IMG/VR virus record: IMGVR_UViG_3300030109_005647
Location: 64,001-128,000 of that record
Length of the DNA: 64,000 bases
Reading direction: 5' to 3' (one strand)
DNA from: a virus
Shown here one piece after another: positions 7,582-29,997 of this stretch (its first letter is position 1; every line of letters begins with the position of its first letter). The notes under the pieces were generated by a model. That model was not told the DNA's origin, made no database searches, and saw only the letters and a list, made by a program, of their open reading frames with translations. The position numbers and the translations under genes are program-made.

Positions 7582-8787
7582 TTAAATGTCTAGTTTTAAT
7601 CTAAACGTGTAGTCTATATCTTCTTTCTTTTTAACTGGTTTCGATAGGTTTGCTATAGCAATAAGATTTTTGTTTTCGTCGTAAATGCCCACTTTACTAA
7701 TAAATGTTTGCGGTTTAAATTCTTCATTGTAGTCATGAAAAGAGGAGCTTATGGTGTTTTTTACCCCAACTGTATTATTTTGAAAATAGCCGCCTGCGCC
7801 AGAACTTGGAGATTTATCATCGTTATACTTTACATATGTTGGATTTGGAGAGAAATTTAGATCTCCCAGTGGGGCATCGCAATTCATAGTTATTGTATTT
7901 ATGTAATTTGTGCCTTGAAAGTTTAATGCAAAACTCGCAGAAGGTGTTATGTCCGCTGGAGCAAGACCGTCATTTGCACCAGCACAAAAATCTCTCCAGC
8001 TACCTCGTCTCGTGCCAATGCCAAAATCAAAGTTATCTTCAGTTAGATTCCAACTACCTGTCAATAAGATAAAACCTTCATTGTATAGAACCACACCGGC
8101 AACTTTATCAGCACCATTTGCTTGAGCAAAAGCAGTGCCACTAGTTTGTATTAGTTCACCATTACGATAAATATCCTCACAACGTGAAACCAAAGTTCCT
8201 GATATGTAAAAATCTAATTTAACAGAATTTCTACGAATCTCTGAACTATAGAAAATACTAGGTATACTTATCAAGGTAACATTTTGTGATTCCTTGTCTC
8301 CCAATGATGAAGAAAACGCATAATGATTACTTACTGGCTTGTAATAGTTTAAAGTATTTTTTAAAGCCAACAAGTGAGAACCTGTCGGATTCGTTGCCGA
8401 CTCAAACGTTTCTCTCACAATTGAAGAAGAAAGTGGATAACTACCTGTTATTATATCACCATATAGGAATTGATTAAAGGCATTATCACTAATTGTGGCA
8501 AAAGAGTTCAAAGAAGAGTCTTTTGTTATAAAAGGAAAGATCCTTGCTTTTACTCCGGCATCAGTGTCTGGGTCATATGTGTGGTCTGCGAGATTTCTAT
8601 CTACGTTTAATTCGTATAGACTAACATGCCCAACTGGTACATTAGTAACATTATTGGTATTTGCACCAATTATTTTATTTTTATTGTTATAATAGATTTC
8701 CGCATTATTAACAAAAAATACATTGTCTGGATAGGTTTTGATCCTATTCTTCAATACATCTTTTGGACCAAACTTATAATAAGACAT
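7582..8787 (-). CDS. Virion structural protein with tail-collar/fibre-attachment-like C-terminus
   Basis: C-terminal ISKVGIYDENKNLIAIANLSKPVKK..FRLKLDI, like DUF3751-type fibre-attachment domains; paralogue of 8789..9871. Confidence 0.65.
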   Translation of the reverse strand: MSYYKFGPKDVLKNRIKTYPDNVFFVNNAEIYYNNKNKIIGANTNNVTNVPVGHVSLYELNVDRNLADHTYDPDTDAGVKARIFPFITKDSSLNSFATISDNAFNQFLYGDIITGSYPLSSSIVRETFESATNPTGSHLLALKNTLNYYKPVSNHYAFSSSLGDKESQNVTLISIPSIFYSSEIRRNSVKLDFYISGTLVSRCEDIYRNGELIQTSGTAFAQANGADKVAGVVLYNEGFILLTGSWNLTEDNFDFGIGTRRGSWRDFCAGANDGLAPADITPSASFALNFQGTNYINTITMNCDAPLGDLNFSPNPTYVKYNDDKSPSSGAGGYFQNNTVGVKNTISSSFHDYNEEFKPQTFISKVGIYDENKNLIAIANLSKPVKKKEDIDYTFRLKLDI

Positions 8788-8788
8788 T

Positions 8789-9871
8789 TTAGTAGTCTAA
8801 TCTAACCCTCAACGTTATTTCGTTTGAAGGAGTCTTCTTAAGAGGCTCTGACAATTTGGCAACAGCTAGAAGCTCATTGTCAGCAGAATAAAGACCTACA
8901 GTTGTAATATACGAAACTGGTTCGGCTTTTGGATTATCATTTTTTACTCTAATCTTGCTAGCAGTTAAGTAAGTCGGATTGGCACTGTAGTTATAATCTT
9001 GCGTGTTGGCACGACAGAAATAAATAGTTGAGTTAAGCTCTGTTGTGTTGTTGAAGTCAAGATTATCATAAGCGTAACGGAAGCCATTAGCTACTGAGTT
9101 TATAGTGGAACCAGTTAATCTGTTGTCTACAGGTCTTTGAGTTCCAGCCAACTCTGCTCCAGTCGGAGCGCGACCATCAGCAACAGTTGGATCACCAAAA
9201 GCGCCGGTAAAGTAAGATGCGGTTATAACAGCAATTCCTGCTTGGTAATAAACGTGTCCAACAACAGTTTCCGATGTTGCATTAAGCTTAAGTAAACCAT
9301 ATTCTCCCGCTGGTGAGTTGACTTTGTAGTCTGTAGCTGCGCCATAATCACCAATTGTGTTTAATTGATCGCGGACGTTAGAATTTCTTGAATCACTTGA
9401 AGTGGCATACAACTTTAATCTAAAAGAGTTTTTCTTAATTTCGTCTTTTGTAAGCAATCGACTAAAGTTTACAAAGAAGCACTCTCGCATTTTTTCTCCA
9501 CCTGCTGCGATATTACCATCCAAATCAAACTCTTGAATTGACCCAGTGGCATCATACCCATAAAGCACTTGAGCATGTTGGTTGTAGATATTGATCTTCT
9601 TAGCATTTTGTGTATTTGACGCTGCAGAAAGTGGACTTTTCGCTGAGTAGCCCGCAGATATATCAAAAATGTGATTTGCAGAGGAGCTTAGATAGGGGTA
9701 GTCAAACACAGCTTCAAACATTCCGTGGGCGAAAGTTTTAATATTAGTTTCACTACCAGCCTCTTTATATGTACCAGAAACAATGGTACCAGTAATTGGA
9801 ATTGCCTCGTGAAGAAGTGTTCTTGTGTTTGCGATATCGCTATTAACTAAAGTTTTAAATGTAGTAGCCAT
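8789..9871 (-). CDS. Virion structural protein with tail-collar/fibre-attachment-like C-terminus
   Basis: C-terminal ITTVGLYSADNELLAVAKLSEPLKK..LRVRLDY; position in the baseplate block. Confidence 0.65.
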   Translation of the reverse strand: MATTFKTLVNSDIANTRTLLHEAIPITGTIVSGTYKEAGSETNIKTFAHGMFEAVFDYPYLSSSANHIFDISAGYSAKSPLSAASNTQNAKKINIYNQHAQVLYGYDATGSIQEFDLDGNIAAGGEKMRECFFVNFSRLLTKDEIKKNSFRLKLYATSSDSRNSNVRDQLNTIGDYGAATDYKVNSPAGEYGLLKLNATSETVVGHVYYQAGIAVITASYFTGAFGDPTVADGRAPTGAELAGTQRPVDNRLTGSTINSVANGFRYAYDNLDFNNTTELNSTIYFCRANTQDYNYSANPTYLTASKIRVKNDNPKAEPVSYITTVGLYSADNELLAVAKLSEPLKKTPSNEITLRVRLDY

Positions 9872-9883
9872 TTATTTTTCCTT

Positions 9884-10828
9884 TTAATCCTGTATCTTGA
9901 GAATTCTAAGCGGTACATCCACCCTGTAACCCGTTGTAACCCCTGTTATTCTAACTGTTGTATCAATAAATAAGAATGTGCTGCCGCCAGAGGCAACACT
10001 AGAACCTAGAGTGTTAAATAAGAAATCAGATGAAACAACATCGGTTGCTGCTTGAAGACCTATTTTGAGTCTGTTGCCGCGTGGACCTTGAATATTGTCA
10101 TCTCTCTCCTGATCTGCAGCAGCGTCTGTATTATCCAAATTGTTCATCGATTTAATGTACTGACCAGTGTTTTGAGTTATATAATATGATGCTATTTGAT
10201 CATCATCAATAAATGATGGGTTTGCAACTGCGCCGTTACCCATAGTGTCATATACTTTTGCGAATCTAGAATCTATTTCAATTAAATATTGAGTCTCTTT
10301 TAGTTCTGGATCTAGTGTCAACGTAGGAGAAACTTGATTTGTATCTAAGCCTTGATCGATTCGAATATGGTGTGCAGTGAGTGGAGTGTTATATCCCTGC
10401 AAAAATCCATTATTTCCAAGCGATACTGCTGATGCATTGGCAGTGTCACTATCAACAACCAGAACATATGTACCAGAATGCATAAACGAAGTTGAAGTAG
10501 CTGTAGGTTTTCCATCTGCTGCTAGTTGATTTATTTTTAGCACAGGCAAATAAAGTAAATTATTGTTTGTTAAACTTATCAATTTAGATTTCATATTCGA
10601 GGTATTGTTTGTAAACGCCTCAAACACCGGTGTTTGTAATATCTCCAAATCATAATATGCTGACCCTGATGGGTGGTTTCCATTATAAGAGGAATAATCA
10701 ATCTCATCATCACCAAATGCAAATTTTGTAATCTTAAATGAACCGTCACCTCTCGCCAAACGTAGACGACCAGTATCGGTTAAAACCGCGTCTAAAATTA
10801 TATCACCTGAATTGTCTAAGAAAGCCAT
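9884..10828 (-). CDS. Putative baseplate/tail structural protein
   Basis: N-terminal DAVLTDTGRLRLARG..FKITKFAFGDDEIDY (LTxxG...F.xGD pattern of fibre/baseplate N-domains); AGGAG RBS. Confidence 0.6.
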   Translation of the reverse strand: MAFLDNSGDIILDAVLTDTGRLRLARGDGSFKITKFAFGDDEIDYSSYNGNHPSGSAYYDLEILQTPVFEAFTNNTSNMKSKLISLTNNNLLYLPVLKINQLAADGKPTATSTSFMHSGTYVLVVDSDTANASAVSLGNNGFLQGYNTPLTAHHIRIDQGLDTNQVSPTLTLDPELKETQYLIEIDSRFAKVYDTMGNGAVANPSFIDDDQIASYYITQNTGQYIKSMNNLDNTDAAADQERDDNIQGPRGNRLKIGLQAATDVVSSDFLFNTLGSSVASGGSTFLFIDTTVRITGVTTGYRVDVPLRILKIQD

Positions 10829-10847
10829 ACGTGTTCTCCTCTTTAAC

Positions 10848-10855
10848 TAAATAGT
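10848..10855 (-). promoter_or_regulatory. Candidate phage promoter ACTATTTA
   Basis: Intergenic; ends 20 nt before the 10828 start. Same motif and spacing at 32236. Confidence 0.5.
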
Positions 10856-10856
10856 A

Positions 10857-13800
10857 TTATAGATCATTTATGATGTTTTTTGGTGTTTTGACTGTAAAAT
10901 TAATATCTATTTTCTTGCCTGTTTGCTTTGATGTAATTCTTAATTTATATTTTTTACCAAAAACTGTATTTCCACTTGGATCGCCTAGTTCAACCTTTGT
11001 AGAAATAAAATTGCCGGTGCCAGTGCCGGTTTCTTGATTTATCTCAAGATTGTCGTAACGCACTGTGTTTTGTAATTGGCTTGGTTGTATTAGTAAATAC
11101 TTTTCAAAATTCTTAAATGAAGAAAATTTTTCATTATTTTGTTTTTTAATCGTATCTTCTATATCATACACCTCTATTTTTGTATACGGCGCCACTCCTA
11201 TGTTTTGCACAATTTTAATTTTATATATTGAAGAAGGATTAGAAAGTTTATCATGAATGTCTCTAAATCTAAAAGTATAATAGTAATCTACATTTGGAAT
11301 AATTGTATCTTGTAGGCTGGTATTTCCTTGCTCTAAAATATAAGATGTAAGACTGACATCTGTTTGAAAATCCGAGTATGAAGCAGGGGCGTTTAAAACC
11401 CTGTATACCTCATAACTACCGATAGAGTCATCAGACTTAAAGGTTATTTTTTTACCATACTCTACATCTTGCGTTATAGAGGCTAATTTAAAAACCTCTT
11501 CATCGTTTGCAAATATAGGTTTTGGTATTTGTTGCAATTCACCTGTTGACAGCCCAAACAAAAACAATATTTTATCGTTAACATTTCTGTAAGGTATCGC
11601 ATTAACCTGTGGTGGTAACGGTGGCGAATCCTCCACACGAGTGTAATTTAACTCGTCAGTCTCAATATTGACCTCTTTCGTGTTGTAATATGGCACCCTT
11701 ACAAATTGCATGTAAGGTGCTACTTGATATCTTAATCTAAAATGTTTTTTAGACTCATCAGATGCAACATAAGGTGGCACAAAGTTAAGTAAAGTAACAG
11801 CTTTGTTTTCTTCAGGGGTGTCTTTTATCATTTTATACTCTGTCCCAACAACAACCTTGTGAGCAAAGATTTTATAAAAATAATTTTTATATGGTATTAT
11901 TTGTGTATCGTAATAAGAAGTATTTTCTTTTTCGGTTATTGGCAAAAATATGCTTTGTAGATACCGCTCAACGCCGTCAGAGTCAATCTTATACTTGGCT
12001 ATTTCATACATTAAAGTTTCTTGATGAGCTAGCTTACCAGTATTTATATCGTATGGTGATCTTAAAAGCTTTTCTTCAAGTAATAATTCTTCTAGTTGCT
12101 TGTTGTAGACTTCTATTTTCAACTTTTGTATTAGATCTGCCAGTTCGCCTTCTATGTTCATATTGTCATCAGCGTCTTTATACACAAATAGATTCTTTGA
12201 AGTGTTTGAAAATTTAAAAGCCATTGTGTCAAGAAACACATCGGAATCATATGATGGTGTTATGGGCATCAAATCAGGATTAATATTAGCCTGTGGAAGA
12301 AACTGGTCTCTAAAATAGAGCTTGAAGGTTGGAAGATTAACTCCTGAATAGATATTATAATTTGTAGTATCTACACCATTTATTAAAGCGCCATAAAACT
12401 TAGCAAATGTTTTTTGACTATCCTCTGTTACGTTGTTCTCTGAGGTTATGTTTGGAATGGTGACGGATGCTGCGTATGTGTTAACTCCATCCAATAGGTT
12501 ATTTTTTGAAAATAATTTGGCAATTGGTCCTTTAGTTTCATTTGGTATATTGATCTTGACTAGATAAGGAAAAATATTATTTTTATCTAGAGCCTGATTA
12601 AAGATGTCAATTGATTTTTCAGAAAAATATATGCCAGTTTTCATTTGTTGTATCCATCTAGGAACAGTTTGGCTTTTATCGTTTATAAGTTGCAAAGGAA
12701 AATTTTGTTTATCATTTTCCAAAAGAAGCATAAAGTTTTGTTTTGATACATCATTTACATTAGCAGCCTCATTTTTAGGAGCAAGCTGTCCCAGTGTATC
12801 ATCAGTTGGGGATATAGTTTTGGCACCGATTAAGCCATCGTCAGTGACAAAATATTTTTCTTTTACACTTTGAATTGTCTCTATTGGGGAGTCTTCTATC
12901 AAATACTTCTCATACAACTGAGAGTAGTTATCTAGATAATCATTTAAATTAGATAACGTAATGTCCTCAATATCAAAGCTTGGTAAGCCTAAAAAAGTTC
13001 TTATTGACTCTTTTTGAGTCTCTAAAAATAAAAAGTCATATATACTTGGTAAAGATTTTTCATCTACAATAAAGTTTTCTATAATTCCTATCGATACCGG
13101 TTCATACTGCGGATCATAGTAGTTATAAATTTTATCATAAGTTGGCTGCACGGCTGTCTTAACACCTAAAGATTTATTATTTATATTCTCTTTAAGATCC
13201 GTCTTAAAATCATAAGGCACGCCATATTTTGTTGCAGCATTAAATTGCACACCTTGACCATCTAAGGTTTGTAAATTATCAAAGTAAGGTTGAAATATTT
13301 TAGAATTTACTGTAGCTTCAAACGTTTCATCGTTAGCTAATCCAATAGCAGTGTTAAATAAAGGCAGAACTTGATTAAAATCAGCAGTAACATAATCTTT
13401 ACTTGTGTATACAAACTTGCTATTTGTTTTTTTTAAGTCATAATCTAAATCAAACTTCTTTTGCGCATCTACGCTTGTCGGCATAATTTTTTTAAAAAAC
13501 ACATTTAGGCTATATGTCGTGTTGTCGGGAATATTTAATCTGTATTCACCAGTAACTTTTATATTTCTATATTCTATCGTTTTATTATCAAAAACAAATA
13601 TGTTTCTTTGTCTTGGATCGTCACCAGGATCGTTACTAGATACTTTTAAATCAATGTCTAGTTTATTTATATTTGCAGAAGAGTTCTCTACAAACCCATT
13701 TTCTGTCTCAGTTCTTTCAATTGATTGTAGAGAAGATGGAAAGTCAAAAGAATCTGGTCCAAAAACTTGATATTTTACTTGATTTGGCGCTACTAATTCT

Positions 13801-13946
13801 ATTAGTGCCGATACCGCTGTGACATTTTTGAAATCCTCACCCAATACAGCATCTACATCATCTAGACTTGCTGCGGCGGTGGCTCGAATACTGTTTGGAT
13901 TATCAAAAAGATAAATATAGTTTGTGTAGTTGGCACTAGTAAACAC
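10857..13946 (-). CDS. Large structural protein with fibronectin-III-like C-terminal domains
   Basis: ~1030 aa; PPLPPQV, YEVYR, DTIIPNVDYYYTFRFRD..SNPS FN3-like patterns. Start moved to GTG 13946, 8 nt after GGAGG. Confidence 0.6.
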   Translation of the reverse strand: MFTSANYTNYIYLFDNPNSIRATAAASLDDVDAVLGEDFKNVTAVSALIELVAPNQVKYQVFGPDSFDFPSSLQSIERTETENGFVENSSANINKLDIDLKVSSNDPGDDPRQRNIFVFDNKTIEYRNIKVTGEYRLNIPDNTTYSLNVFFKKIMPTSVDAQKKFDLDYDLKKTNSKFVYTSKDYVTADFNQVLPLFNTAIGLANDETFEATVNSKIFQPYFDNLQTLDGQGVQFNAATKYGVPYDFKTDLKENINNKSLGVKTAVQPTYDKIYNYYDPQYEPVSIGIIENFIVDEKSLPSIYDFLFLETQKESIRTFLGLPSFDIEDITLSNLNDYLDNYSQLYEKYLIEDSPIETIQSVKEKYFVTDDGLIGAKTISPTDDTLGQLAPKNEAANVNDVSKQNFMLLLENDKQNFPLQLINDKSQTVPRWIQQMKTGIYFSEKSIDIFNQALDKNNIFPYLVKINIPNETKGPIAKLFSKNNLLDGVNTYAASVTIPNITSENNVTEDSQKTFAKFYGALINGVDTTNYNIYSGVNLPTFKLYFRDQFLPQANINPDLMPITPSYDSDVFLDTMAFKFSNTSKNLFVYKDADDNMNIEGELADLIQKLKIEVYNKQLEELLLEEKLLRSPYDINTGKLAHQETLMYEIAKYKIDSDGVERYLQSIFLPITEKENTSYYDTQIIPYKNYFYKIFAHKVVVGTEYKMIKDTPEENKAVTLLNFVPPYVASDESKKHFRLRYQVAPYMQFVRVPYYNTKEVNIETDELNYTRVEDSPPLPPQVNAIPYRNVNDKILFLFGLSTGELQQIPKPIFANDEEVFKLASITQDVEYGKKITFKSDDSIGSYEVYRVLNAPASYSDFQTDVSLTSYILEQGNTSLQDTIIPNVDYYYTFRFRDIHDKLSNPSSIYKIKIVQNIGVAPYTKIEVYDIEDTIKKQNNEKFSSFKNFEKYLLIQPSQLQNTVRYDNLEINQETGTGTGNFISTKVELGDPSGNTVFGKKYKLRITSKQTGKKIDINFTVKTPKNIINDL

Positions 13947-18631: not shown

Positions 18632-18641
18632 TTAATAACTC

Positions 18642-21600
18642 CTATTGCCCAAAGGGATCGGAACCGCCAAGGTTGCCAAGCTGCGCTAATGACTGCCCTA
18701 CTGCTGTAGCGCTGTCCACTGTTGTCGATGGACCTCCATCTGGTGTGCTTACACCTGCTCCAGTACTACTACCAAAACCGCCTGGACCAGAAGGATCTAT
18801 GAAATCTGTAGTGCCGCCTGCGCCGACTCCAGGTAATGCCGATGCTGGTGTCTCTGGTAGTGGAGCATATTCATTCTGGTCGGCATCAGACTTAGACGGT
18901 GCGCCAAACTTTTCTTGTATTTCTTGCGTCGGAACTTTAACAGAACCATCTTGCGGGGTCATTGTAATTTCCGCATCTAATTTTACTAGCTCTACCATAC
19001 TAAAGAAATCATATGGCCAGTTATATGTGATATTTGGAAACTGCTGTTGATTTGCAAATTTAAAATCAAACTGACCGCCATCATTAATATTGGTTGTTCT
19101 CTCAAAGTAATTAGTCGCTGCTCGTTTCTTAGCCTTGAATACCATCCATTGTATATCACTAGTATACTCTCGTGATTTAGATATTTGTTCTTCGTTCCCT
19201 AATATCTTTTTGCCATTGATCAAATTCAACTTAAGAGAGTTAAATACTTCGTGTGATATTGTAACTTCATCGCTGTCATGGTAAAATGGTGATGCTCCAA
19301 TTGACACTGGGGGTAGGTTTTGCCAAATGTTAGCCAAGTCTTCTTGTGTTAGAGTGCGTGTAAATTCAAAAATATACATGGCAAATGGACCACCAGGAAT
19401 TTGTTCAATACCAAGTTTACCAGGAACATTGTTTTTGTAAGTTATAAAGTCCATGTGTGGTGGAATAACATATCTCTGCATTTTGTCTACCATATCCACA
19501 ATACTTTGATCTGCTAATGGATTTTCTGGTAGCGTCCCGTCTCCTGGCTGGTTTCCTTGTAGTATTAATTCTGCCTGATTAACAGCATCTCTGGATATTT
19601 TAAATGTAACTTTATTACCGCCTACAACTCTAAATGGAATAGCGACCACAGCTTCGCTAATTTCTTTACTTGATCCCACTTTTCCTATGCGTTGTGGTAC
19701 TTTACCGTTTGTTTTGTCGAACCCAAGAAGGTCAGCGAGTGAACCAGTGAGGCTTGTATCGTTAACACTAGATGGGTCGGCTATAGAAAGAAACGCACCA
19801 TTTGCCTCGTCAATTTCTCCATATTGGTGCCACATGCCAACTCTTCCAGTGTCACCAGTGCTGGCTATTGTTGATTGTGTTACGTTTTTAAAATTCAACA
19901 TGGGGCATTCCCATTTTGGCTCAATAATCATAACATCAATTTCATTAATATCTTTTTTAACCGTTTTTGGTTGACCGGTAATCGCATCAAAATCTGTCTC
20001 TAATATTCTTGCCTTTCCAATGTTAAAAGAAGAAGTAAAATGCTGTGCGTATTTTGTGGCGGCTTGGTCAAACGCAGAGCCTTGGGCTCCTTGAAAGCTA
20101 GCGGTTAAATTATTCATTATTTCATCTAAATCGAAATAAGTAAAATCGTCTGGATCGAGCGGTCTATAGGTTAAAGTTAATATTCCTGCGCCCGTCTTGC
20201 TGTCTAGGGTAGCATGTTTATATACAGGAGCGAAAGCTGAGAAGTCGACTGCTGTTCCTACCGGTACGCCATATGCTGATCCTTGTTCATAGTTAAAGAA
20301 TGTAGTGTTTTCATTTTTAAAGTTAGGACTATTTGAAATTCTTACCTGCATTGTATACTCTTTAAACGATTCTCCTCCTGGCTGAATTAATTTTTTAGTA
20401 TTGCTTGCAAAATCAGGATGATTTGATGGCAACGAGGTCAGTCTTGTCATCCTTCCTTGTGGTAAGAAAAAGTTAATCGATTCTGCGAAGAAATTATTTG
20501 CCGCTAAGGTATAAAGTAGTGTGCTTTGATTATCTGAAACTTTAAACGTGTATTGTGAGGTACTTTGTAATCCTTCAAACTTCTCTCCAGCATATGAAGT
20601 ACCAAAACCAGAGGCTTGGTTAGCAATTCTAGCATCATTTATATGTAAATCATACCATGTTAAACTTCCAACGTTGCCACCTATATTCCCATCAGGATCT
20701 ATAATTGCTTCAAATGGTATTCTTGTAAACGGCTGTGTTCTTTCATAGAAAGGATTAGTGCCTGTAGATGATGTCACATAAGCAACGCTTCTTCTTGTGT
20801 CATTAACAGAATTACTGGGCATTGGAAAGTCAACCGCCAAGCCTGCTTTAATAGAATTATACATTATGCCTGGTGCGTAGAAAGGTGTAAGTCCAGCGCG
20901 TGCTGAACCGCTCGTTAAGTTATTCCCCTCAAATGGTCCTAGATATGAAGCGCTAAATAAGTTTGCCAACTGCGTTGTTCTTTGAGCAGGGTAAAAACCG
21001 TCATAGGGCAAGAACTTTATCAACGATTTACAACGCATAGTAACTCTATCTATCACTGTATCATCTGTTGCGTCCTCTGTGATTTCAAAGAACTTTAATA
21101 AATCAGTAGTGTTATAAACTTTGTAAAATTCTGGATTGGTGGCATCTAAAACAGATGACCCGGTTAAATCTAAGAATGGCTTTGTTGGGTTAATCTGTGG
21201 ATTTCGTGCGTTAATATCGAAACCAGTGTTGATGTAATCTGTCATATACTCTGATATTCTAAACTCTGGTATAATAGAATAATCTTTTCCTAGTGTTCGA
21301 ATCTCATTAGCATATTCAGCATATGTTGTGTAAGAAGGATTTAGTCCTGATTGTAAGCCGGCATCCCAAGCGGTATCGTTGACGATGCCAATCGTTGAAG
21401 AACTAACCGGCAGCGTGTAAAGAGGGCTAACAAAGTGATCACCGGCAGAGTTCATAAATACTGTACAGTTATTTTGAAGCTCACCTGCGCCATCCGTACC
21501 CTCAAGATTTGCTGCGGCGCTCTTTACGTTTAGTCTCGCATCAAGTGCAAAAATACTTTGCTTTGGAATGGTGAACCCAATAGAATTAACTGCGTTTTCT

Positions 21601-24600
21601 TCTTCTCTCAACTCTTGAGAGTCATCTTTTGAAGCGTCACCTTTCCAGAATAAATTTTCAAAATTCTCGCGACCTCTAACTTTAGAAAGGTAAGTGTTTT
21701 GTTCTTTCGGGAAAACTGTTTCTCTAACAGTGTATGAAAGTAATTCATCTATCGGGTTTAACTCTGATACACCAGCAAAATCACCAGCACTGTATAGATA
21801 ATAGTTTATGACATCTAGTGTCTGCTGTTCTGATTTTTTATTTCTTTCAGCGAGTATATCACTATCTAGATCTATTCCATCGGCTCCGTGATCCGTAAAG
21901 TAGCCCAAATTATTAAGGTATGAGTGGTTTATTGTAATCCCTTTGGTTGTAAAGTCTTCTGGATTGGAAGATATTCCAAGCTTTACTGATAGCTTATGAC
22001 GTAGCTGCTTATATTTACTTGTAATTGGAGGCTCTATAACTGATGTAATACTGCCTTTAGCTCCGTCAATTACAATTGGATCTCCCTCTGAATTTGTTGC
22101 CTTTTGAGGTTTTAGATAACTTAGCCTGTTTTCACCTCGATGTGTTCTTACAATTGGATGATTGTCTTTTCTATATAGTTTCCAGTTTGAGCCGCCTACT
22201 GGACCTCCACGAGAAGATAAAATACCTTGTAGCACTCTAGAAGGTGGCGCAAATACATTAACTGAAAAATTATCAACCAACCCTCCCTTGTACACTCTTA
22301 AATCTGCTTCTGGAGGAGTACTGTCCATCTCCCCGACATTTGGAAATCCTAGTTGATTTGCGCTAGATGTCAAGGGGTTAACAATATTCGTATTAAGACC
22401 AGCAAAATCAACAGGAATAAACTCAGCGCTAGACGCTGCAGCCAACTCAAGTAAACCAAAGACCCTAATTCCACTCGAATTAACAAAACTACCAACAACA
22501 CTAGAGGTAATAAAAGTTAAATCAGTAGAGGCAAGACTTGCATTACTAAAATCTGGCTGTTCAAAACCATAAAGAGCGGAGCCAGTATAGTCATTTATCA
22601 AGCTAGCTGTGATCCATGCATATTGAACATCTGTTTGCGGTATTTGATGTGTAACAAAGAAATTATCAAATACAGTTTCGGTCGAAACAGTCCCAAAGTC
22701 ACCAGTAAACTCATTAGAATATTTTATCTGTTTCCTACCATTTCTATTGACCTTGTGAAAAGAACCAGTGCCAATGTATTTCAAATTAGCCCCAGGATCG
22801 TTTATAGAAGAAGAGCCGCCAGGATATGTTCCCCAGGATGCTCTTTCGTAATCTGCTATAGTTCTTGCGTCACTAAATAAACCAAATTGATTTGTATGAT
22901 CTGACAACAACTCTTGAAGAGGAAGTCTCACACTTAAATTTCTAAAAGGTAGCGCATTATAAACACTATATTCCGCCGCGGCGACATCTAACATTCCTTC
23001 GCACATCGTCGCAGGATCACCGGGAGCGGAGAATCGATTCACAATAATCGCTTTGTTCTTACCGGTTAAATCTCTTCTAGGCAGCGCAAAGTCAACAACA
23101 CCTGACACGTATAAAGAATCAGTCACCGTTGTCGCCAAATCGCCATCAGATTCCGCTAAATAACGATTATTCAATGAACGACCATTAGTCATTACAATTT
23201 CATAAGTTTTAGAATAGTTTCCAATGTTCGTGCTACTATCAGAGTCAATACCGGTGCCATCTGAAGACGCCGTTATTTGTTGAATATTTTTTATATTTAC
23301 AGGTCTTTTGGCATACTCTTCACGGAAGAACACAGACTTTGGATTCTCTACTGCAACATTAACTAAATCTAATGCGGTAGAAGATACTTTTAATCTCCAG
23401 CCCTCTAGTCTTTCACCTTCTCTTTGAGGTTCTTCATTGTCTGTCACAAGATTAGTCATGACATGGCGATAGGCGCGACCACCCACATATTTTTCTGTAA
23501 ATGGACCCTGCATTGGGACATCGCCAAAAGGACCGTAACTATCGTGATGTAAGTTTGTAATTGCCAACTCTGGTTTAAAGTCTGCTAAGTCTGTCATAGC
23601 AGGGTTTGCGACGACAGAAGAGCTATAAAGACTAAATGGAAACACCAAATCTCCTTTATAAACTTCGGAAAATGACTCAGCATTATCTTGAGATACCCCT
23701 ACAGAAAATTTATATTTTCTCTTACCCTTGTTTAAGATCAAATTATCATCACAAGATTTAAACGATTCAAGTTCTGATTCTGCAGGCTCTATAGAAATTA
23801 ACGCACCCTCTGTTGCGCCGGGGGCTGTTGGACGCTTCCGAAGTGAGTCCCAAAAGCCCACTTTTTTATTTTCATATGCGTTGCCGCCGCCGTGAATTTC
23901 AGGCTCTTTTATCGCATTAATTTTATAAGGTCTTGCAAATCTTCGTAAAGCATACGTGGATCCCTGGTAAGTTCCACTTGAACCTTTAAAACTTGGAGCG
24001 CTGGCATCATTTAAATTATTTACAACATTTAATATCGCTTGTCGATCTGAATCTATAATGGAATCACCACTTGTCAACGCCGATCTTTCTGCTCTTTCTT
24101 TAGCCCATAAACAATTTTCAGCTTCAGTTTCAGATAAAGGCTTGTGACCCTCTTTCCAGGGGTATAGCATCTCATTTATTCCAAATATCGAAGCCTCTGG
24201 ATCTGACTGTTTAAACTCATATGTAGGAAACTTTGATTGATATTTATTTCTCTCTAAAATATGCGATTCAATAACGTTTCTAAGAGGTCTTTCATCTAAA
24301 CCAGAAGACATTGGCGCTAACTTTTGAATCATAGAGGAAACTGCTAGATCAAACCATTTAAAATATTCAATATATTTATCAACATCCGGTGTTGTTGTTC
24401 TTTGGAAAAACAACTGCCTTAGCATTTTAAGTGCTTTGTATTCTCCACGATATCTATCAACACCTTGACCAATAAGATTATTAAAATCAACCACTGTTGA
24501 CATAAAATTTAACATATCTTCTGATATGTTTTGATAGGGGCTTTTTTCTACATATAAATCAAAAAAAGTAGGTCTGCTATCTCTTGTAAAGTAGATGTCG

Positions 24601-27600
24601 TCGTTTTGTAAAACCTTGACGGTGTTTTCACTAGCCATAGTCTCTGGTATGTTTTGCTTTGCAATGATTATGTCATCAGTTAAAACAACGTCAGTGCTAG
24701 ATGCCTTAAACTCGTGTCCAATGCCGGTGTGTTGTTTATTTGAAAGATTACTTAAAAATCCATATCTATTTATTTGTTCCACAGAGCCTGACGTAAAATC
24801 ATCTACGATGAAACTACCTGCTGTGTCTGAGCCTGTTACATTATCAAAATTCCAGTGCAGCAATAATGTTTCTTTATTTGGAACATAAACGTTATTTATA
24901 GAAGTATTAAAAAGATAAGCATTTTGCTCTGGGTTCTTAATGCTATAATTGTTTGGGTTTGAGGCGTGTAACGATAAGTCATTAATTGTTAACTTATTCT
25001 GCCATGCTCTGATAGTGTTAAATTTAACGTCAGATTGCTGTAAGACTGATCCAGTAAAGTTTGTTTTATGGGAACCGACAAATAAACGCTTTGGAGATGC
25101 CAAGAAATTGATTGCCTGCTGTTGCGTTATAGATCCTGTTAGGGTGAATTGATTCATTGTGACATCTAAAACTTTACTAATACCAGAAAATTGAACAACA
25201 TATCCGGTATTTTCAGTTGCGCCGTTTGATAAAGTTGCAGGTGAGGCACCAGTAGCGCCATCTTCAACAAAAGTCCCCTCGATATCGGTTAATGTAATTG
25301 AATTCCCTATTGGACCAGCTACGTTTGCTGTAATTGTTATATCATCTGGTGTAGAGCCGATAGCAGCAGTGATACCTTTAATTCCACTTGTTGCATTACC
25401 TGATCCGGCGCCGTATTGAATAATTGAAGTATCGCTGCTTCCATTAATTGCCGCCACAAGTCGAGTAGCAGTTGAGTTAGCCGCAATGGGCGAAGTGCCT
25501 TTTACTTGTATTTCGTTGGCAGTGCCTGCAGATGGCGTGGCAGCTTCAAGTATCCTGATAGTGATATCATTTCCGGTTCCACCTGCAGCAACTGGAACAT
25601 TAATTTTAAATCTATCGTTTTGTGCCTGACCAGCAAAACTTAATAATATATTAACACCGGATGCTTTTGAATCACTTAGTGTTCCTGATACTTGATTTGC
25701 GTTTGGATATGCCTCTGGATATAACGATACCAAAAAACTCCAATTGGTGTCACTGTAAACATCGTCATAATAAGAGGACACTAATTCTGGTAAAAAACCT
25801 CCAGCGGTTCCAGTTAGAACAAATCTTGCTTTATCAGAGTATGTATTTAATTTTTCTGATTTTACAACAAAGTTAGCGTAGTCGTTTGTGTTCCAAGTTG
25901 TATGCTGGGGGATGCTATCTTCTGCGGTATGTTGACCGAACAGCGATGCGGTTATCATAATCGGATATTGATTGGCATAACTCGCGAACCCATGTTTAAA
26001 CGTGTTAAGGTTTGATTGATCTACTCTATTTGGAAAAGTAATGTTTGCTTCGACACTAAATGGGAGACTAGCTTCTTGAGATGTTCTTGCATTGAAGTCC
26101 TTGCTAGCAGACATAAAAGTAACAGAATTGCTATTTAAGCTGCTAGAATATTGGTGAACACTTGCGTCGGCATTTGGTATAGTATTAAAATTGATTAACT
26201 TAAACTTACCAGATGCAGTCCTAAAGTTATCTTCCAAAACATAATCAACATTGTTTGAATAGATGTTTAATTTATATACTTGATCATCAATTCCAAAACA
26301 TCTTATTAGGTTTCTAAAAGATTTCTCTGTTCCTTTGGATTTGTTTATATAAGTCAAGTTGTTGTAAATGTTTTTATATATGATGTTTTTAACATCATTA
26401 AACTTTTCAGTATATTTTATATTATTATCTCTATTCTCAAAATACTCTAAACTATCAATGGCGTTAAATATCTCTGGTGTGATAAACCCTTTTGACTGTA
26501 AAATCCTATTCATAAAGGGTATTGGTTTTTGAGAACCACTAACATAATCGTTTTGCGGAAGAGAAGGCATTGATTTAGCAAAGTTTGTTGCACTATCAAA
26601 GTAACTACTTATGATTTGTGTTAAATTCCATAACGAATTAGCAATGATGCCTTCATCATCTGGATTATTAGCGTCGTGTTCTTCTAGAATCCAACCTGGT
26701 AGTGTATAGTATATTGTTGATGGATTTGTATAATCATATTGTTTACCCTCTTTTCTTCTATCAGAAAGATATGAAACAACATCAGGGTGAGATGAATATA
26801 TAATTGGATCTCTGAACTCTACTCCAGAATAAGAAGCTAGTCCTGATTCATTGATTGCGGACCCAGTGTCCCTAGAATATAAAGAAGAGTAGCCAGTCCA
26901 CGATCCATTACTAATTCGACCAGAGTAATCTAAAACTTTTGCGTCTGTGGATGCTGTAAGAGTCAACCCTTCGTTAAACTTATAGTATAAACCAAGATGA
27001 GTATTGGCATCGTCAGTATTGGTGCCTCCACCAACTTGATCAAACCATCGTGTTTGTATTTGTTTTGAAGTTCTCCAGTTTTTCCAAAATCTAAATTCAT
27101 CAACAGAGCCAGATAACTTACCCCAGCCTCTGCCCGCCTGTGGTGATCCATCGTTTGTACCCGATGGGTGTGTAGCAAGGGCGCCAATGGTACCGACTAT
27201 GGTGCCACTTACATAGTCAACAGTTGTTCCTGTTTTTATTGTATGATTGTAGCCGCCATCAACAAAAAGATCCACTGCGGTGTTTGAGCCATCATTTTTA
27301 AATCTAAATGAGTAATGGTGCCAATTATCATCAGCAACGGATGATGTGGTAAGTGAAGAACCTATATTTTCTTTTGATATGCCAGACGTACCTGACATGT
27401 AGGTTACATAAAATGGAGACAGAGTGTTTGTCGCTGCGCCATGTCCCGACATCTCAATTGTCATTCGACCATAATCTAAACTTGAAGAGATTGAACTTGT
27501 AGTGAATATATCGAATACAACCTCAGTTTGGGTAGCCGCAGGATTAAAAGCTGCTTTTTTAAGCCAAAACTCTACGGTATTTCCATCGTTTCCGCCTATC

Positions 27601-28163
27601 TTTAAGTTACACTCGCGATCTTTTGAAAGATCGTAAAGATTTGCTTTTTCTCTATAGTGTGCTTCGCCGGTGTCAGGATCAATGTAAACGTTTGTGCCAA
27701 AGCCCGCATGTGGACCTCCGTTAAACGATACAAATTCATAGGTGCCTGAGCCGGCGGCTCCGTATGAACCCCAGGTGCTATAATCAGTAGATGTATCGGT
27801 CGCTGATAGACTAGCTGTTGAAAAAACAGCGTATCCGGTGCTTCTTGGGTACCCGTTTTCAAAAAGATATAAATCTAGACCAGAGGAGGAGAGTTCCCAA
27901 AGTATTTTTTCTTTTTTAGATCCATCATAAGGATACGTCTCATAAACTCTTGTAATGGAATCATAGTAATACTTTTCTGCAGAGCCAAATTTAGCAAAAT
28001 TTTCTGGTTTTGAATAATCAACTAAAGGAATAAATCTATCGCGATCTTCAATGAATACTTTTACATAATCAGGTGATTCCACCCCACTAGCAGTAAGAGA
28101 AGATAAGTTAGTGTTCGAAATATATTTGTATTTTTGTTCTTTAAATAAATCTTTTAAGGACAT
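18642..28163 (-). CDS. Giant baseplate wedge-like protein with LamG/concanavalin A-like domains
   Basis: 3173 aa; TVEFWLK..WHHYSF..LFVDG..GSVDEFRFW LamG motifs and a second LamG-like unit; KSKGTEKSFRNLIRCFG resembles the KGT motif of P2 gpI/T4 gp7-type wedge proteins; follows the gp25/gp6 homologues. Confidence 0.75.
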   Translation of the reverse strand: MSLKDLFKEQKYKYISNTNLSSLTASGVESPDYVKVFIEDRDRFIPLVDYSKPENFAKFGSAEKYYYDSITRVYETYPYDGSKKEKILWELSSSGLDLYLFENGYPRSTGYAVFSTASLSATDTSTDYSTWGSYGAAGSGTYEFVSFNGGPHAGFGTNVYIDPDTGEAHYREKANLYDLSKDRECNLKIGGNDGNTVEFWLKKAAFNPAATQTEVVFDIFTTSSISSSLDYGRMTIEMSGHGAATNTLSPFYVTYMSGTSGISKENIGSSLTTSSVADDNWHHYSFRFKNDGSNTAVDLFVDGGYNHTIKTGTTVDYVSGTIVGTIGALATHPSGTNDGSPQAGRGWGKLSGSVDEFRFWKNWRTSKQIQTRWFDQVGGGTNTDDANTHLGLYYKFNEGLTLTASTDAKVLDYSGRISNGSWTGYSSLYSRDTGSAINESGLASYSGVEFRDPIIYSSHPDVVSYLSDRRKEGKQYDYTNPSTIYYTLPGWILEEHDANNPDDEGIIANSLWNLTQIISSYFDSATNFAKSMPSLPQNDYVSGSQKPIPFMNRILQSKGFITPEIFNAIDSLEYFENRDNNIKYTEKFNDVKNIIYKNIYNNLTYINKSKGTEKSFRNLIRCFGIDDQVYKLNIYSNNVDYVLEDNFRTASGKFKLINFNTIPNADASVHQYSSSLNSNSVTFMSASKDFNARTSQEASLPFSVEANITFPNRVDQSNLNTFKHGFASYANQYPIMITASLFGQHTAEDSIPQHTTWNTNDYANFVVKSEKLNTYSDKARFVLTGTAGGFLPELVSSYYDDVYSDTNWSFLVSLYPEAYPNANQVSGTLSDSKASGVNILLSFAGQAQNDRFKINVPVAAGGTGNDITIRILEAATPSAGTANEIQVKGTSPIAANSTATRLVAAINGSSDTSIIQYGAGSGNATSGIKGITAAIGSTPDDITITANVAGPIGNSITLTDIEGTFVEDGATGASPATLSNGATENTGYVVQFSGISKVLDVTMNQFTLTGSITQQQAINFLASPKRLFVGSHKTNFTGSVLQQSDVKFNTIRAWQNKLTINDLSLHASNPNNYSIKNPEQNAYLFNTSINNVYVPNKETLLLHWNFDNVTGSDTAGSFIVDDFTSGSVEQINRYGFLSNLSNKQHTGIGHEFKASSTDVVLTDDIIIAKQNIPETMASENTVKVLQNDDIYFTRDSRPTFFDLYVEKSPYQNISEDMLNFMSTVVDFNNLIGQGVDRYRGEYKALKMLRQLFFQRTTTPDVDKYIEYFKWFDLAVSSMIQKLAPMSSGLDERPLRNVIESHILERNKYQSKFPTYEFKQSDPEASIFGINEMLYPWKEGHKPLSETEAENCLWAKERAERSALTSGDSIIDSDRQAILNVVNNLNDASAPSFKGSSGTYQGSTYALRRFARPYKINAIKEPEIHGGGNAYENKKVGFWDSLRKRPTAPGATEGALISIEPAESELESFKSCDDNLILNKGKRKYKFSVGVSQDNAESFSEVYKGDLVFPFSLYSSSVVANPAMTDLADFKPELAITNLHHDSYGPFGDVPMQGPFTEKYVGGRAYRHVMTNLVTDNEEPQREGERLEGWRLKVSSTALDLVNVAVENPKSVFFREEYAKRPVNIKNIQQITASSDGTGIDSDSSTNIGNYSKTYEIVMTNGRSLNNRYLAESDGDLATTVTDSLYVSGVVDFALPRRDLTGKNKAIIVNRFSAPGDPATMCEGMLDVAAAEYSVYNALPFRNLSVRLPLQELLSDHTNQFGLFSDARTIADYERASWGTYPGGSSSINDPGANLKYIGTGSFHKVNRNGRKQIKYSNEFTGDFGTVSTETVFDNFFVTHQIPQTDVQYAWITASLINDYTGSALYGFEQPDFSNASLASTDLTFITSSVVGSFVNSSGIRVFGLLELAAASSAEFIPVDFAGLNTNIVNPLTSSANQLGFPNVGEMDSTPPEADLRVYKGGLVDNFSVNVFAPPSRVLQGILSSRGGPVGGSNWKLYRKDNHPIVRTHRGENRLSYLKPQKATNSEGDPIVIDGAKGSITSVIEPPITSKYKQLRHKLSVKLGISSNPEDFTTKGITINHSYLNNLGYFTDHGADGIDLDSDILAERNKKSEQQTLDVINYYLYSAGDFAGVSELNPIDELLSYTVRETVFPKEQNTYLSKVRGRENFENLFWKGDASKDDSQELREEENAVNSIGFTIPKQSIFALDARLNVKSAAANLEGTDGAGELQNNCTVFMNSAGDHFVSPLYTLPVSSSTIGIVNDTAWDAGLQSGLNPSYTTYAEYANEIRTLGKDYSIIPEFRISEYMTDYINTGFDINARNPQINPTKPFLDLTGSSVLDATNPEFYKVYNTTDLLKFFEITEDATDDTVIDRVTMRCKSLIKFLPYDGFYPAQRTTQLANLFSASYLGPFEGNNLTSGSARAGLTPFYAPGIMYNSIKAGLAVDFPMPSNSVNDTRRSVAYVTSSTGTNPFYERTQPFTRIPFEAIIDPDGNIGGNVGSLTWYDLHINDARIANQASGFGTSYAGEKFEGLQSTSQYTFKVSDNQSTLLYTLAANNFFAESINFFLPQGRMTRLTSLPSNHPDFASNTKKLIQPGGESFKEYTMQVRISNSPNFKNENTTFFNYEQGSAYGVPVGTAVDFSAFAPVYKHATLDSKTGAGILTLTYRPLDPDDFTYFDLDEIMNNLTASFQGAQGSAFDQAATKYAQHFTSSFNIGKARILETDFDAITGQPKTVKKDINEIDVMIIEPKWECPMLNFKNVTQSTIASTGDTGRVGMWHQYGEIDEANGAFLSIADPSSVNDTSLTGSLADLLGFDKTNGKVPQRIGKVGSSKEISEAVVAIPFRVVGGNKVTFKISRDAVNQAELILQGNQPGDGTLPENPLADQSIVDMVDKMQRYVIPPHMDFITYKNNVPGKLGIEQIPGGPFAMYIFEFTRTLTQEDLANIWQNLPPVSIGASPFYHDSDEVTISHEVFNSLKLNLINGKKILGNEEQISKSREYTSDIQWMVFKAKKRAATNYFERTTNINDGGQFDFKFANQQQFPNITYNWPYDFFSMVELVKLDAEITMTPQDGSVKVPTQEIQEKFGAPSKSDADQNEYAPLPETPASALPGVGAGGTTDFIDPSGPGGFGSSTGAGVSTPDGGPSTTVDSATAVGQSLAQLGNLGGSDPFGQ

Positions 28164-28164
28164 A

Positions 28165-29997
28165 TTATTCTACTCTAAACCTAAACCTTTCTGGTTGCTC
28201 AACGTAACTTCCATTAATTAGATAAGAAAAGCTTAATTCATAGACAGTATCGCTATCAAATAAGTTCATTTCTAAGTCAAAGTAGCTACCACTCGCATCA
28301 TAAGATAACCGAGTGTGGTTTAGCGAACCGGTCCCAAAAGGAATAACTTCTAGATTATCGCTCACGCGGGTGAAGCGATAGTAAGTATTGTCAATTATAC
28401 TTGTTTCTATTTCGTTATTCGCTACTGTATAAATAGTTGGGGACCAATCTTTTTGACGAGTATAGAGTCTAAATCTTACCTTTTCACCTTGATTATAAAC
28501 TGCACGTAAGTTGGTGACTTTAGAGACATATCTTTGGTCAAAATTATAATTTTGACTGTTAAAGGTTTGTACAGTTACCGCTGAACCGGTGTGGTACTCA
28601 ATCCCGTCTTTATTCCAAACATCAAATATTTTTGTGATGCTTGAAGAGGCGTAAGCAAATGAACATGAGTAAATACCCGTTTCGACGTGAGAGCCTGTAA
28701 TGGTTAGAGTGTCTGGTGAGTTTACGCCGCCGCCGAAAGGTAAAGAAAGTTTATTTCCAGTAGGGGCGGTGCTGCCGCTATAAATATTAACGAAAATATT
28801 TCCTGTCCCTATCGCTGGGATATCTTTAAGCTGTCCTCTGACCACGTTGTATAGATATAGATTCATTAAATTATCAGAAGCTGGAACAAGAGAGGAACTT
28901 AAGAAAAAATCTCCACGATTATCTTTTTTGCTGTCATCCCATCGGGCTTCGATAATGGGTCGTTTGTGAAAAAACTGTGATCCACGCGCAAAGAACATTT
29001 TAGTATAATAAGATTGTTCTTCAGTTTCATTGGCGGCGGTAAGACGCACACCAAAGCCATGATTACTTAAATCACCAGAAACCCAATCCTCCACGAGATG
29101 GCTTACATCAACCTCTAAGTTTTCGAAACCAGAGTCAAAAGATTGTGTGAAAGTATATTCTGCACTGTCGATATAACTGCCACCTTCAACATTGGCGCCG
29201 CCAGTAAAGTTAGCCACTGTAACACCATTGACGCTATCTGTATTATCTTTATCACCTATTGTGCCAGCAGTTGTCTGAGTAACTGTAACTTTAGTGCTAT
29301 CTGTAACTACAGCAGTAAACCCAGCATTTGTGGTCGCAGTAATTGACGCGGCAATTGCCGTTGCTATGTTCGCATTGCTCGTGGCGCCGCCATAGCCTAA
29401 TTCTACAGTGCCCCCCGCAGTGCCTCCTGGTTGTGACCCAAAGGGAGTAGTATCTTTAAACTGATACGTTGTGGCAACGCCAGCCGCATCGACCAAAATA
29501 AATGTTTCATTATTTCCTATCGATCCGTGACCAGTGACCGTAATTAGAGCGGTTGATCTTCCTGAATTCTCTGCCCACGGAACGCCACTAGAAGCAGAAA
29601 GATAGTTAGATGCATCTTCATCTGTATAATTTTCCATGTCCAGACCAAGACCTTCATTCCAAGATTGAGATATCGGCTGTACTAATAAAGCGTAATCCTT
29701 CGGCGTAGTTTGTGTATGCTCCGCGTCATACATGGTTAAGAAGAAATTAACACTACCAGATGCTGGAATTATGCCACTTGTTCTATCTGTATTTATTGCA
29801 GTTGTGTCGAATTCAATAAGAACTCGCGCTAATTCTGAGGATAGACCAGTGCTTGAACTTACTTGGGCATATATGCTAAAAACTTCAAGGATATCAGATT
29901 GACCCATATTTCCGCTGACACCACGGGTATCAAGGTTTGATTTGAAAGCGTTTGTTATGGTGTTATCTTTTGTCGCGTAGTATCTTTTTATAGCCAT
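28165..29997 (-). CDS. Virion protein with DNRLRE-like domain and an inserted module
   Basis: ATKDNTI..NMG..RVLIEFD..PISQSWNEG..W..GG pattern; Ig-like C-terminus. Confidence 0.6.
   Translation of the reverse strand: MAIKRYYATKDNTITNAFKSNLDTRGVSGNMGQSDILEVFSIYAQVSSSTGLSSELARVLIEFDTTAINTDRTSGIIPASGSVNFFLTMYDAEHTQTTPKDYALLVQPISQSWNEGLGLDMENYTDEDASNYLSASSGVPWAENSGRSTALITVTGHGSIGNNETFILVDAAGVATTYQFKDTTPFGSQPGGTAGGTVELGYGGATSNANIATAIAASITATTNAGFTAVVTDSTKVTVTQTTAGTIGDKDNTDSVNGVTVANFTGGANVEGGSYIDSAEYTFTQSFDSGFENLEVDVSHLVEDWVSGDLSNHGFGVRLTAANETEEQSYYTKMFFARGSQFFHKRPIIEARWDDSKKDNRGDFFLSSSLVPASDNLMNLYLYNVVRGQLKDIPAIGTGNIFVNIYSGSTAPTGNKLSLPFGGGVNSPDTLTITGSHVETGIYSCSFAYASSSITKIFDVWNKDGIEYHTGSAVTVQTFNSQNYNFDQRYVSKVTNLRAVYNQGEKVRFRLYTRQKDWSPTIYTVANNEIETSIIDNTYYRFTRVSDNLEVIPFGTGSLNHTRLSYDASGSYFDLEMNLFDSDTVYELSFSYLINGSYVEQPERFRFRVE

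Follow-up and report, generated by a model that had tools for sequence, protein, structure and literature searches.

A recurrent Ser/Thr motif in distal tail proteins of aquatic T4-like myoviruses is a candidate O-glycosylation sequon that covaries with a variable sugar cluster

Why does a subset of the tail proteins of one virus repeatedly carry the same short motif, a hydrophobic residue (Phi) followed by [ST]-[GAS]-[ST]? The question arises from a 64,000-nucleotide stretch of viral DNA (the window), which comprises bases 64001-128000 of the IMG/VR record IMGVR_UViG_3300030109_005647, itself 138.6 kb long with an estimated completeness of 78%. A Gp23-family major capsid protein, a contractile sheath, a portal and a large terminase assign the window to a T4-like myovirus. 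Four proteins of 3173, 610, 401 and 360 residues, all encoded in a distal tail module downstream of the gene for a gp6-like baseplate wedge protein, were reported as carriers in an initial annotation, which read the motif as a modification site on virion proteins tied to a glycosyltransferase cluster in the same window. That reading gained support from sequence shuffling and from homologues that lack the cluster. We consider it likely that the motif is a sequon for phage-encoded cytoplasmic O-glycosylation of exposed tail proteins, and thus probably marks where the phage attaches sugar to its own tail.

Recounting reproduced the TGS tripeptides first reported in the four proteins (8, 3, 3 and 2 in those of 3173, 610, 401 and 360 residues, respectively), as well as the 3 SGS of the 610-residue and the 2 TAS of the 360-residue protein. 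The TAS count of the 3173-residue protein was corrected from 7 to 8; this protein also holds 4 SGS, 6 SGT and 6 SSS. The reported lack of TGS in neighbouring proteins held as well, with none in those of 1045, 1140 and 1697 residues. The enrichment persisted against both whole-protein shuffles (2000 per protein) and shuffles within local blocks. The 3173-residue protein contains 31 Phi-[ST][GAS][ST] motifs against 7.5 ± 2.7 expected, 8 TGS against 1.91, 8 TAS against 1.63 and 54 [ST][GAS][ST] against 24.2, none of which was reached in 2000 shuffles. The same was true for the six motifs each of the 401-residue (0.76 expected) and 360-residue (0.88 expected) proteins. Local composition did not account for the signal, as shuffling in blocks of 20, 40 or 100 residues predicted 7.7-8.7 motifs in the 3173-residue protein (31 reached in 0 of 1000). 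In an unbiased scan of all 8000 tripeptides over the four proteins (4544 residues), TGS ranked first (16 versus 2.88 expected, Poisson 7e-8), TAS third and SSS fourth. The 1045- and 1140-residue neighbours had 0 motifs versus 1.0 expected and 2 versus 2.2, and the gp6-like protein and an SbcCD-like nuclease were likewise at or below expectation. These results confirm that the motif enrichment is real.

The [GAS] definition of the middle position was examined across six diverse genomes by scanning Phi-[ST]-X-[ST] for every residue X. Glycine (128 observed, 22 expected; 5.8-fold), alanine (67 and 20; 3.4-fold) and serine (84 and 29; 2.9-fold) were favoured, followed by glutamine (18 and 8.8) and cysteine (2 and 0.9, two instances only), and the remaining residues were at or below expectation. 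The definition therefore holds. Position -1 is hydrophobic in 52% of instances, with Leu, Val, Met, Ile and Phe enriched but not Asp. The position that follows the motif is likewise hydrophobic in 52% of instances versus a background of 32%, and in all six instances in the 401-residue protein. The third position is mostly Ser (about 80%; 73-95% across genomes). As first described, the sites are dispersed rather than tandem, being internal and scattered along the proteins.

The enrichment is not generic to tail proteins. Among 25 structural proteins of T4 (including gp6-12, gp18, gp23 and the fibres gp34-37), none was enriched, with a maximum z score of 1.7 and at most two T[GA]S. In the 138.6-kb record itself, only 5 of the 82 open reading frames (ORFs) of at least 200 residues were flagged: the tail sheath, a tail fibre bearing a Peptidase_S74 chaperone domain, and the reported proteins of 3173, 401 and 360 residues. 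The 610-residue protein and a second fibre fell just below the flagging threshold, and the major capsid protein was mildly enriched (4 versus 1.5 expected). All six motifs of the sheath lie at residues 133-599, between conserved domains at 8-67 and 692-972; this insertion between conserved terminal domains is likely the outer part of the sheath. Pfam and PHROGs searches gave no match for any of the four proteins, and a search of the ESM Atlas with the motif proteins returned solely viral clusters annotated as hypothetical protein.

The gp6-like protein was used to recruit 80 related viral loci (73% down to 27% identity), from which ORFs of at least 250 residues were scored. Homologues of the 3173-residue protein reached a z score of at least 3 in 28 of 36 ORFs, each listed homologue of the 610-residue protein had at least two T[GA]S versus at most 1.4 expected, and of 15 further loci, 12 had enriched homologues of the 401- and 360-residue proteins; z scores of the gp6-like homologues listed stayed at or below 1.1. 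The motif occupies conserved positions in orthologues from 22 related viral contigs. In the 610-residue protein, the site LSSSL at residue 367 keeps the motif in 51 of 53 aligned homologues; in the 360-residue protein, Phi-TG[TS]-I and LSSSA are each kept in 21 of 21 aligned orthologues; LTGSW of the 401-residue protein is kept in 16 of 21. We defined as conserved the 54 alignment columns (26 of them in the 3173-residue alignment) that hold the motif in at least half of the enriched genomes. Each of 21 enriched genomes retains 61-98% of these columns. The distant genomes G018 and G019, which were excluded from the site-retention alignments, are also enriched. By these alignments the motif is a family trait.

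Two cultured distant relatives, Flavobacterium phage vB_FspM_immuto (MW353176) and Microcystis phage Mel-JY01 (PP395634), also carry motif-rich distal tail proteins; literature searches turned up no paper mentioning the latter. The densest case is the annotated tail spike protein of immuto (locus L082, 35287-38448; 1053 residues), with 35 Phi-[ST][GAS][ST] motifs versus 9.5 expected and 26 T[GA]S versus 5.0.

Downstream of these observations stands the question of what could act on such sites. Between the tail genes and a conserved pair of GT4-family glycosyltransferases (GT4a and GT4b), the window encodes a variable cluster for sugar biosynthesis and glycosyl transfer (Table 1). On the sugar side, its Pfam matches comprise a UDP-sugar dehydrogenase, an NAD epimerase/dehydratase, an MptE-like protein (PF01973), SIS, HAD, an HpcH-type aldolase, a CTP_transf_3 cytidylyltransferase, and methyltransferases including a GXM-like one; the transferases match GT29-like, GT8-like, GT4 and GT2 families. 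The phage thus encodes glycosyltransferases of its own (three GT4, one GT2, one GT8-like and one GT29-like). The SIS, aldolase, HAD and cytidylyltransferase set resembles what we take to be a CMP-ketosugar route; no NeuB/PseI-type synthase was identified. The description of the cluster as soluble proved accurate, as none of the 24 ORFs between window positions 40915 and 63147 has a transmembrane-like segment, and these ORFs therefore include no membrane-spanning flippase or polymerase.

The cluster is hypervariable. Ten clusters at the same site, from this genome and G001, G002, G006, G007, G009, G010, G011, G013 and G025, differ in content, and most gene families are shared by two to four of the ten. 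The structural proteins of G009, G010 and G013 are 70-85% identical to those of this phage, yet their island genes are largely different. Only one family, that of the 539-residue protein, is common to all ten. The N-terminal part of this protein (about 280 residues, termed N280) precedes a GT2 domain; no other element of the variable clusters is as widely shared, N280 being present in nine of ten and always adjoining GT4b. By sequence, N280 had no PDB match and no credible Pfam match, and hhalign against GT4a gave nothing. Its predicted structure (predicted local distance difference test score, pLDDT, 89) retrieved GT-B glycosyltransferases, with 119 PDB matches at E ≤ 0.001 that include BshA, PglA, WbnH and GtfC/Gtf3, and N280 can confidently be modelled as a GT-B-fold domain. 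The MptE-like protein (37.7 bits versus a cut-off of 34.6) belongs to a gene family found in one of ten clusters and therefore cannot be a family-wide reader of the motif.

The GT4 pair is the other conserved element. PF00534, the family matched by GT4b, was found in five of five and then in four of five records searched. A phmmer search of the PDB with GT4b gave no match; the nearest solved structure to GT4a by sequence is 3oy2, titled 'Glycosyltransferase B736L' (E 3e-8). A PD-(D/E)XK nuclease gene adjoins the pair here (57049-60408), in immuto (L212, 17965-21884) and in Mel-JY01 (L293, 3376-8303), and in both cultured relatives the order is as in the window: nuclease gene, glycosyltransferase pair, sugar genes. 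Both GT4 proteins also match PF20706, 'GT4 in conflict systems', weakly. The pair might have a second, DNA- or defence-related role.

We compared 25 related contigs in full, setting the summed motif count in the four orthologues against the gap between two syntenic anchors, the 249-residue conserved gene and GT4b. In the ten genomes with a cluster of 10.8-20.2 kb between the anchors, the motif was enriched 3.3- to 5.8-fold (z scores 8-16; summed counts from 33 observed versus 9.9 expected to 55 versus 9.5). Eleven contigs not spanning the site were all enriched (2.8- to 7.4-fold). In G003 the anchors are 0.7 kb apart and the motif is at background (6 versus 6.2 expected, ratio 1.0); in G005 the gap is 0.8 kb and the ratio 2.0 (24 versus 11.9); in G004 the cluster and the GT4 pair are both gone, the PD-(D/E)XK nuclease gene comes immediately after the anchor gene, and the ratio is 1.2 (7 versus 6.1). 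Had the motif been indifferent to the cluster, homologues without it should have been equally enriched; the opposite was seen. Retention of the 54 conserved columns dropped to 36% in G005, 8% in G003 and 2% in G004. A tblastn search with 183 proteins of the ten clusters against the G003, G004 and G005 contigs detected no relocated sugar genes, apart from one weak dehydrogenase-like match in G003. Across relatives, the motif therefore depends on the glycosylation genes, as judged from one or two losses only. Loss together with the cluster is a direct observation, as are the enrichment, the conserved positions and the restriction to certain virion proteins.

Absence of the motif is derived rather than ancestral, because G003 plus G004 and G005 nest within enriched lineages in three trees and the distant G018 and G019 are enriched. 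G003 and G004 form a clade (support 100), which in the gp6 tree is sister to the enriched G007 (support 98) and in a tree of four concatenated non-target proteins shares an unresolved trifurcation with G007. The partner of G005 is the enriched G022, joined by G025 in the concatenated tree. A tree of the 360-residue protein with motif columns masked likewise places G003, G004 and G005 inside enriched lineages. The sisters G003 (L103, 44717-49463) and G004 (L153-L155, 38742-41061), whose proteins are about 72% identical, differ in the GT4 pair; with the pair kept but no island in G003 and the pair also lost in G004, the whole system seems to have decayed step by step.

A structural explanation has to be weighed first. 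The motif might be an amphipathic beta-strand or turn signature of distal-tail folds that is never modified, its loss in G003 and G004 reflecting remodelling, for instance towards a new host. The conserved positions and the beta-strand-like Phi-x-small-x-Phi spacing agree with this, as do the few sites that survive in G003 and the low confidence with which motif regions fold, as oligomer interfaces often do: an AlphaFold model of the 360-residue protein from a 14-sequence alignment was poor (pLDDT 55, motif segments below 50), and a Foldseek search of the PDB with this low-confidence model returned no match at E ≤ 0.001. However, the motif recurs in seemingly unrelated proteins (the sheath insertion, S74 fibres, the 3173-residue protein and the immuto tail spike), whereas the baseplate and fibre proteins of T4 lack it. 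The replacements in G003 and G004 are also telling. In 92-98% of the motif columns the Ser/Thr positions became charged or polar (H, Q, E, D, K or N), with the hydrophobic flanks and the alignment left intact, as in ITGTI to VHGGI, LTGS to LQQE, FSSSL to FEGGE and ITAS to LSAD; a motif packed in a protein core should not tolerate such changes in alignable orthologues. These polar replacements, together with the location in the sheath insertion, indirectly suggest that the sites are surface-exposed. As a purely structural motif would not predict a link to cluster loss either, we judge this explanation improbable.

The covariation could instead be coincidental or confounded: a lineage that shifted host or habitat might have lost the island and separately changed its tail surface, the cluster serving DNA hypermodification or alteration of host glycans. 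The small number of loss events leaves room for this, and phage glycosyltransferases are known to modify DNA, according to PMC12619734 and bioRxiv 10.1101/2023.12.21.572611. The nuclease gene adjoining the GT4 pair and the weak PF20706 matches would fit as well. Set against it is the specificity of the change. Ser plus Thr makes up 17.3-18.9% and Asp plus Glu 10.3-11.2% of the target proteins elsewhere, compared with 13.3-13.8% and 14.2-15.3% in G003 and G004, where Ser+Thr is lower by about 4-5 points and Asp+Glu higher by about 4. The non-target proteins have not shifted comparably (Ser+Thr 12.0-15.1% in all genomes, highest in G003, G004 and G005), and those of G003 and G004 have neither lost Ser/Thr nor consistently gained Asp/Glu. 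The graded retention, from G005 and G003, which have the pair only, to G004, which has lost it, fits progressive decay. A role in DNA glycosylation is further weakened by the lack of a thymidylate-synthase-type hydroxymethylase: PF00303 was found in none of five genomes searched, three of them at least 94% complete, so that the T4-type route to glucosylated DNA, the only one this search covers among DNA-modification routes, would be without its first enzyme. We therefore give coincidence little credence. That the motif marks some other cluster-tied event, such as Ser/Thr phosphorylation, acylation or a lectin-like surface binding the cluster's glycan, is very unlikely: two hydroxyls around a small residue might be used by other enzymes or hold a sugar, and methyltransferases and a HAD phosphatase are encoded in the cluster as well, but no kinase or acyltransferase family occurs among the 20 cluster ORFs scanned, nucleotide-sugar synthesis and glycosyltransferases dominate the cluster's content, and about 50 dispersed sites per genome over many proteins are more in keeping with a coat than with binding pockets.

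Several observations weigh against glycosylation of the motif by the cluster. Only one or two loss events underlie the association: the approximately unbiased (AU) test does not reject a single clade of G003, G004 and G005 (p 0.21), which leaves one loss or two, and the masked 360-residue tree does not resolve how G003/G004 relate to G005. No further cluster-less genome was found among 80 more loci of the anchor gene, so the association was not replicated further; 60 of these loci extend at least 5.5 kb upstream, in none do the GT4 pair or the nuclease come within 6.5 kb, the shortest distance to a GT4 gene being 6.6 kb. Cluster loss is rare. The three cluster-less contigs are incomplete (57%, 27% and 33% for G003, G004 and G005), and their genomes may hold a sugar cluster elsewhere. 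G003 and G005 retain the GT4 pair though the motif is gone or halved, which means that the pair alone does not maintain the motif, and N280 is absent from G002, a complete and enriched genome. Some sites, such as LSSSA, persist in G003, so part of the signal may be structural. Taken alone, the 610-residue protein of the window is only marginally enriched (6 motifs versus 2.27 expected, reached in 49 of 2000 shuffles; 3 TGS versus 0.63, reached in 50).

A single enzyme that tracks the motif was sought and rejected, since GT4 is present in the motif-less G003 and N280 is missing from the enriched G002; the GT2 family (PF00535) occurs in only 5 of 23 records and so is no tracker either. Motif flavour, that is, the use of G/A/S and of S/T, followed no pattern with cluster content. 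This uniform usage across genomes, whatever the cluster contains, suggests one conserved reader enzyme combined with variable elaboration.

We infer from the above an O-linked sugar as the modification, together with its acceptor residue, its reader enzyme and the purpose of the resulting coat. In the host cytoplasm, the phage would glycosylate outer proteins of its tail at a short acceptor sequon Phi-[ST]-[GAS]-[ST]-Phi. With beta-strand-like spacing, the two hydroxyl residues would be on the solvent side, and the core side would take the small residue between them along with the hydrophobic flanks. A conserved soluble GT-B block (GT4a, GT4b and usually N280) may start the glycan, which the hypervariable nucleotide-sugar enzymes, methyltransferases and further glycosyltransferases would build and elaborate, here possibly by way of a CMP-sugar. 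With so variable an elaboration cluster, the glycan would differ between close relatives, much like the products of O-antigen loci. Sugar would coat the periphery of the baseplate, the fibres and the outer domain of the sheath, where it could shield against proteases or defences, improve solubility or mediate host interaction. To the full proposal, namely a large family of aquatic T4-like myoviruses with self-contained cytoplasmic O-glycosylation, a Phi-[ST]-[GAS]-S-Phi sequon, a GT-B reader, an island-diversified tail glycan (in effect a phage 'O-antigen') and about 50 sequons per genome that decay to charged residues upon island loss, we give slightly better than an even chance.

Three bacterial systems invite comparison with the proposed one. 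In the GtfA/GtfB/GtfC system of Gram-positive serine-rich repeat (SRR) adhesins, Ser residues in S-small-S contexts are O-glycosylated in the cytoplasm by an adjacent soluble GT-B pair followed by more GT-B enzymes. The phages share the soluble adjacent GT-B pair, and the fold matches of the N280 model include the GtfC/Gtf3 chains 9htx, 4w6q and 3qkw, although these matches are no better than those to generic GT4 enzymes (template modelling scores 0.5-0.6). The PDB and Pfam sequence searches revealed no kinship of N280, GT4a or GT4b with the SRR enzymes, and the SRR acceptors are long tandem Ser-rich repeats whereas the phage sites are isolated and hydrophobic-flanked. Maf-type flagellin O-glycosylation employs a soluble transferase that acts on exposed Ser/Thr of a structural protein and is fed by CMP-nonulosonic acids. 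The window has a PF01973 match and a CTP_transf_3 cytidylyltransferase in common with it, but with PF01973 in one of ten phage clusters a Maf-like protein is not present throughout; we know of no defined sequon for the Maf flagellin system. The general O-glycosylation of Bacteroidota, which is periplasmic and lipid-linked, uses the sequon D-[ST]-[AILVMT]. It too relies on a short Ser/Thr sequon, and one cultured relative of the phages infects a Flavobacterium; in contrast, position -1 of the phage motif is hydrophobic rather than Asp, and the phage cluster is without membrane protein.

Among phages, mycobacteriophages are the only ones in the literature searched for which glycosylation of the virion by phage-encoded enzymes is reported. 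Glycosyltransferases of these phages are taken to decorate their own virion proteins (Freeman et al. 2023, Cell Host Microbe, as cited in PMC12619734), with glycans reported at the C-termini of capsid and tail-tube subunits in siphoviruses of Actinobacteria. The glycosyltransferases are phage-encoded in both cases. The candidate sites differ: here aquatic T4-like myoviruses carry about 50 internal, dispersed ones per genome, on proteins of the baseplate, fibres and sheath rather than at capsid or tail-tube C-termini, and these accompany a hypervariable sugar island of 10-20 kb. A proteomic survey of marine phages (PMC12014285) mentions glycosylation only for animal viruses in its accessible text. 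The main texts in the full-text literature searched contained no description of such a sequon on phage tail proteins.

If the proposal is true, it would provide a defined, portable acceptor motif for soluble bacterial-type O-glycosylation, useful in glyco-engineering, and glycosylated virion proteins would become predictable from sequence. It would also give a function to the large sugar islands of aquatic phages, which annotations often class as auxiliary metabolic or host-modifying genes. That the island is hypervariable among phages with 70-85% identical structural proteins would imply strong diversifying selection on the tail glycan coat, of consequence for adsorption, the evasion of defences and the survival of particles in water. 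The two cultured relatives make the sequon idea directly testable.

Table 1. Features of the tail module and the sugar cluster (window coordinates; motif, Phi-[ST]-[GAS]-[ST])
Feature	Position	Strand	Remarks
S74 tail fibre, 310 aa, N-terminal part	1..144	(-)	Peptidase_S74 chaperone domain; motif 4 versus 0.3 expected
A401, 401-aa tail-module protein	7582..8787	(-)	6 motifs versus 0.8 expected
B360, 360-aa tail-module protein	8789..9871	(-)	6 motifs versus 0.9 expected
C3173, 3173-aa distal baseplate/tail protein	18642..28163	(-)	main carrier, 31 motifs
D610, 610-aa protein	28165..29997	(-)	weaker carrier, just downstream of gp6-like gene
gp6-like baseplate wedge protein	29997-31793		610-aa gene directly downstream
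Muramidase/GDSL hub-type protein	38354-40630		
249-aa conserved gene	40915..41664	(-)	syntenic anchor, tail side of sugar cluster
Variable sugar-biosynthesis and glycosyltransferase cluster	42385..57052	(-)	Pfam matches
539-aa protein	55433..57052	(-)	N-terminal ~280 aa (N280) plus C-terminal GT2 domain
GT4b, GT4 glycosyltransferase	57049..58356	(-)	PF00534; half of conserved adjacent pair; syntenic anchor
GT4a, GT4 glycosyltransferase	58332..59600	(-)	other half of conserved pair
Tail sheath, 980 aa			contractile; 6 motifs at residues 133-599

The S74 fibre gene crosses the left edge of the window and occupies 63212-64144 of the whole record (G000). All but one of the 43 window ORFs of at least 150 residues lie on the minus strand; the sole plus-strand ORF (63289-63999) leaves at the right edge. 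The 1697-residue protein (32258-37351), which has no Pfam or PHROG match, is, unlike the proteins beside it, depleted of [ST][GAS][ST], with 2 versus 7.1 expected and at least 2 in 1989 of 2000 shuffles.

A PDB profile search with the alignment of the 360-residue protein returned Asn-rich HIV gp120 chains only, at E > 0.1, which we regard as chance matches due to an Asn-rich stretch. This stretch (residues 273-298, FNNTTELNS ... NYS.N with N-x-[ST] triplets) is invariant in 14 of 14 aligned homologues, among them those of G003 and G004, which lack the cluster; it has no relation to the cluster-linked motif. The SbcCD-like 1052-residue ORF (2526-5684) combines an SbcD-like metallophosphoesterase N-terminus with an SbcC/SMC-like ATPase and stays about 90% identical across several relatives despite a much greater divergence of their tail proteins.

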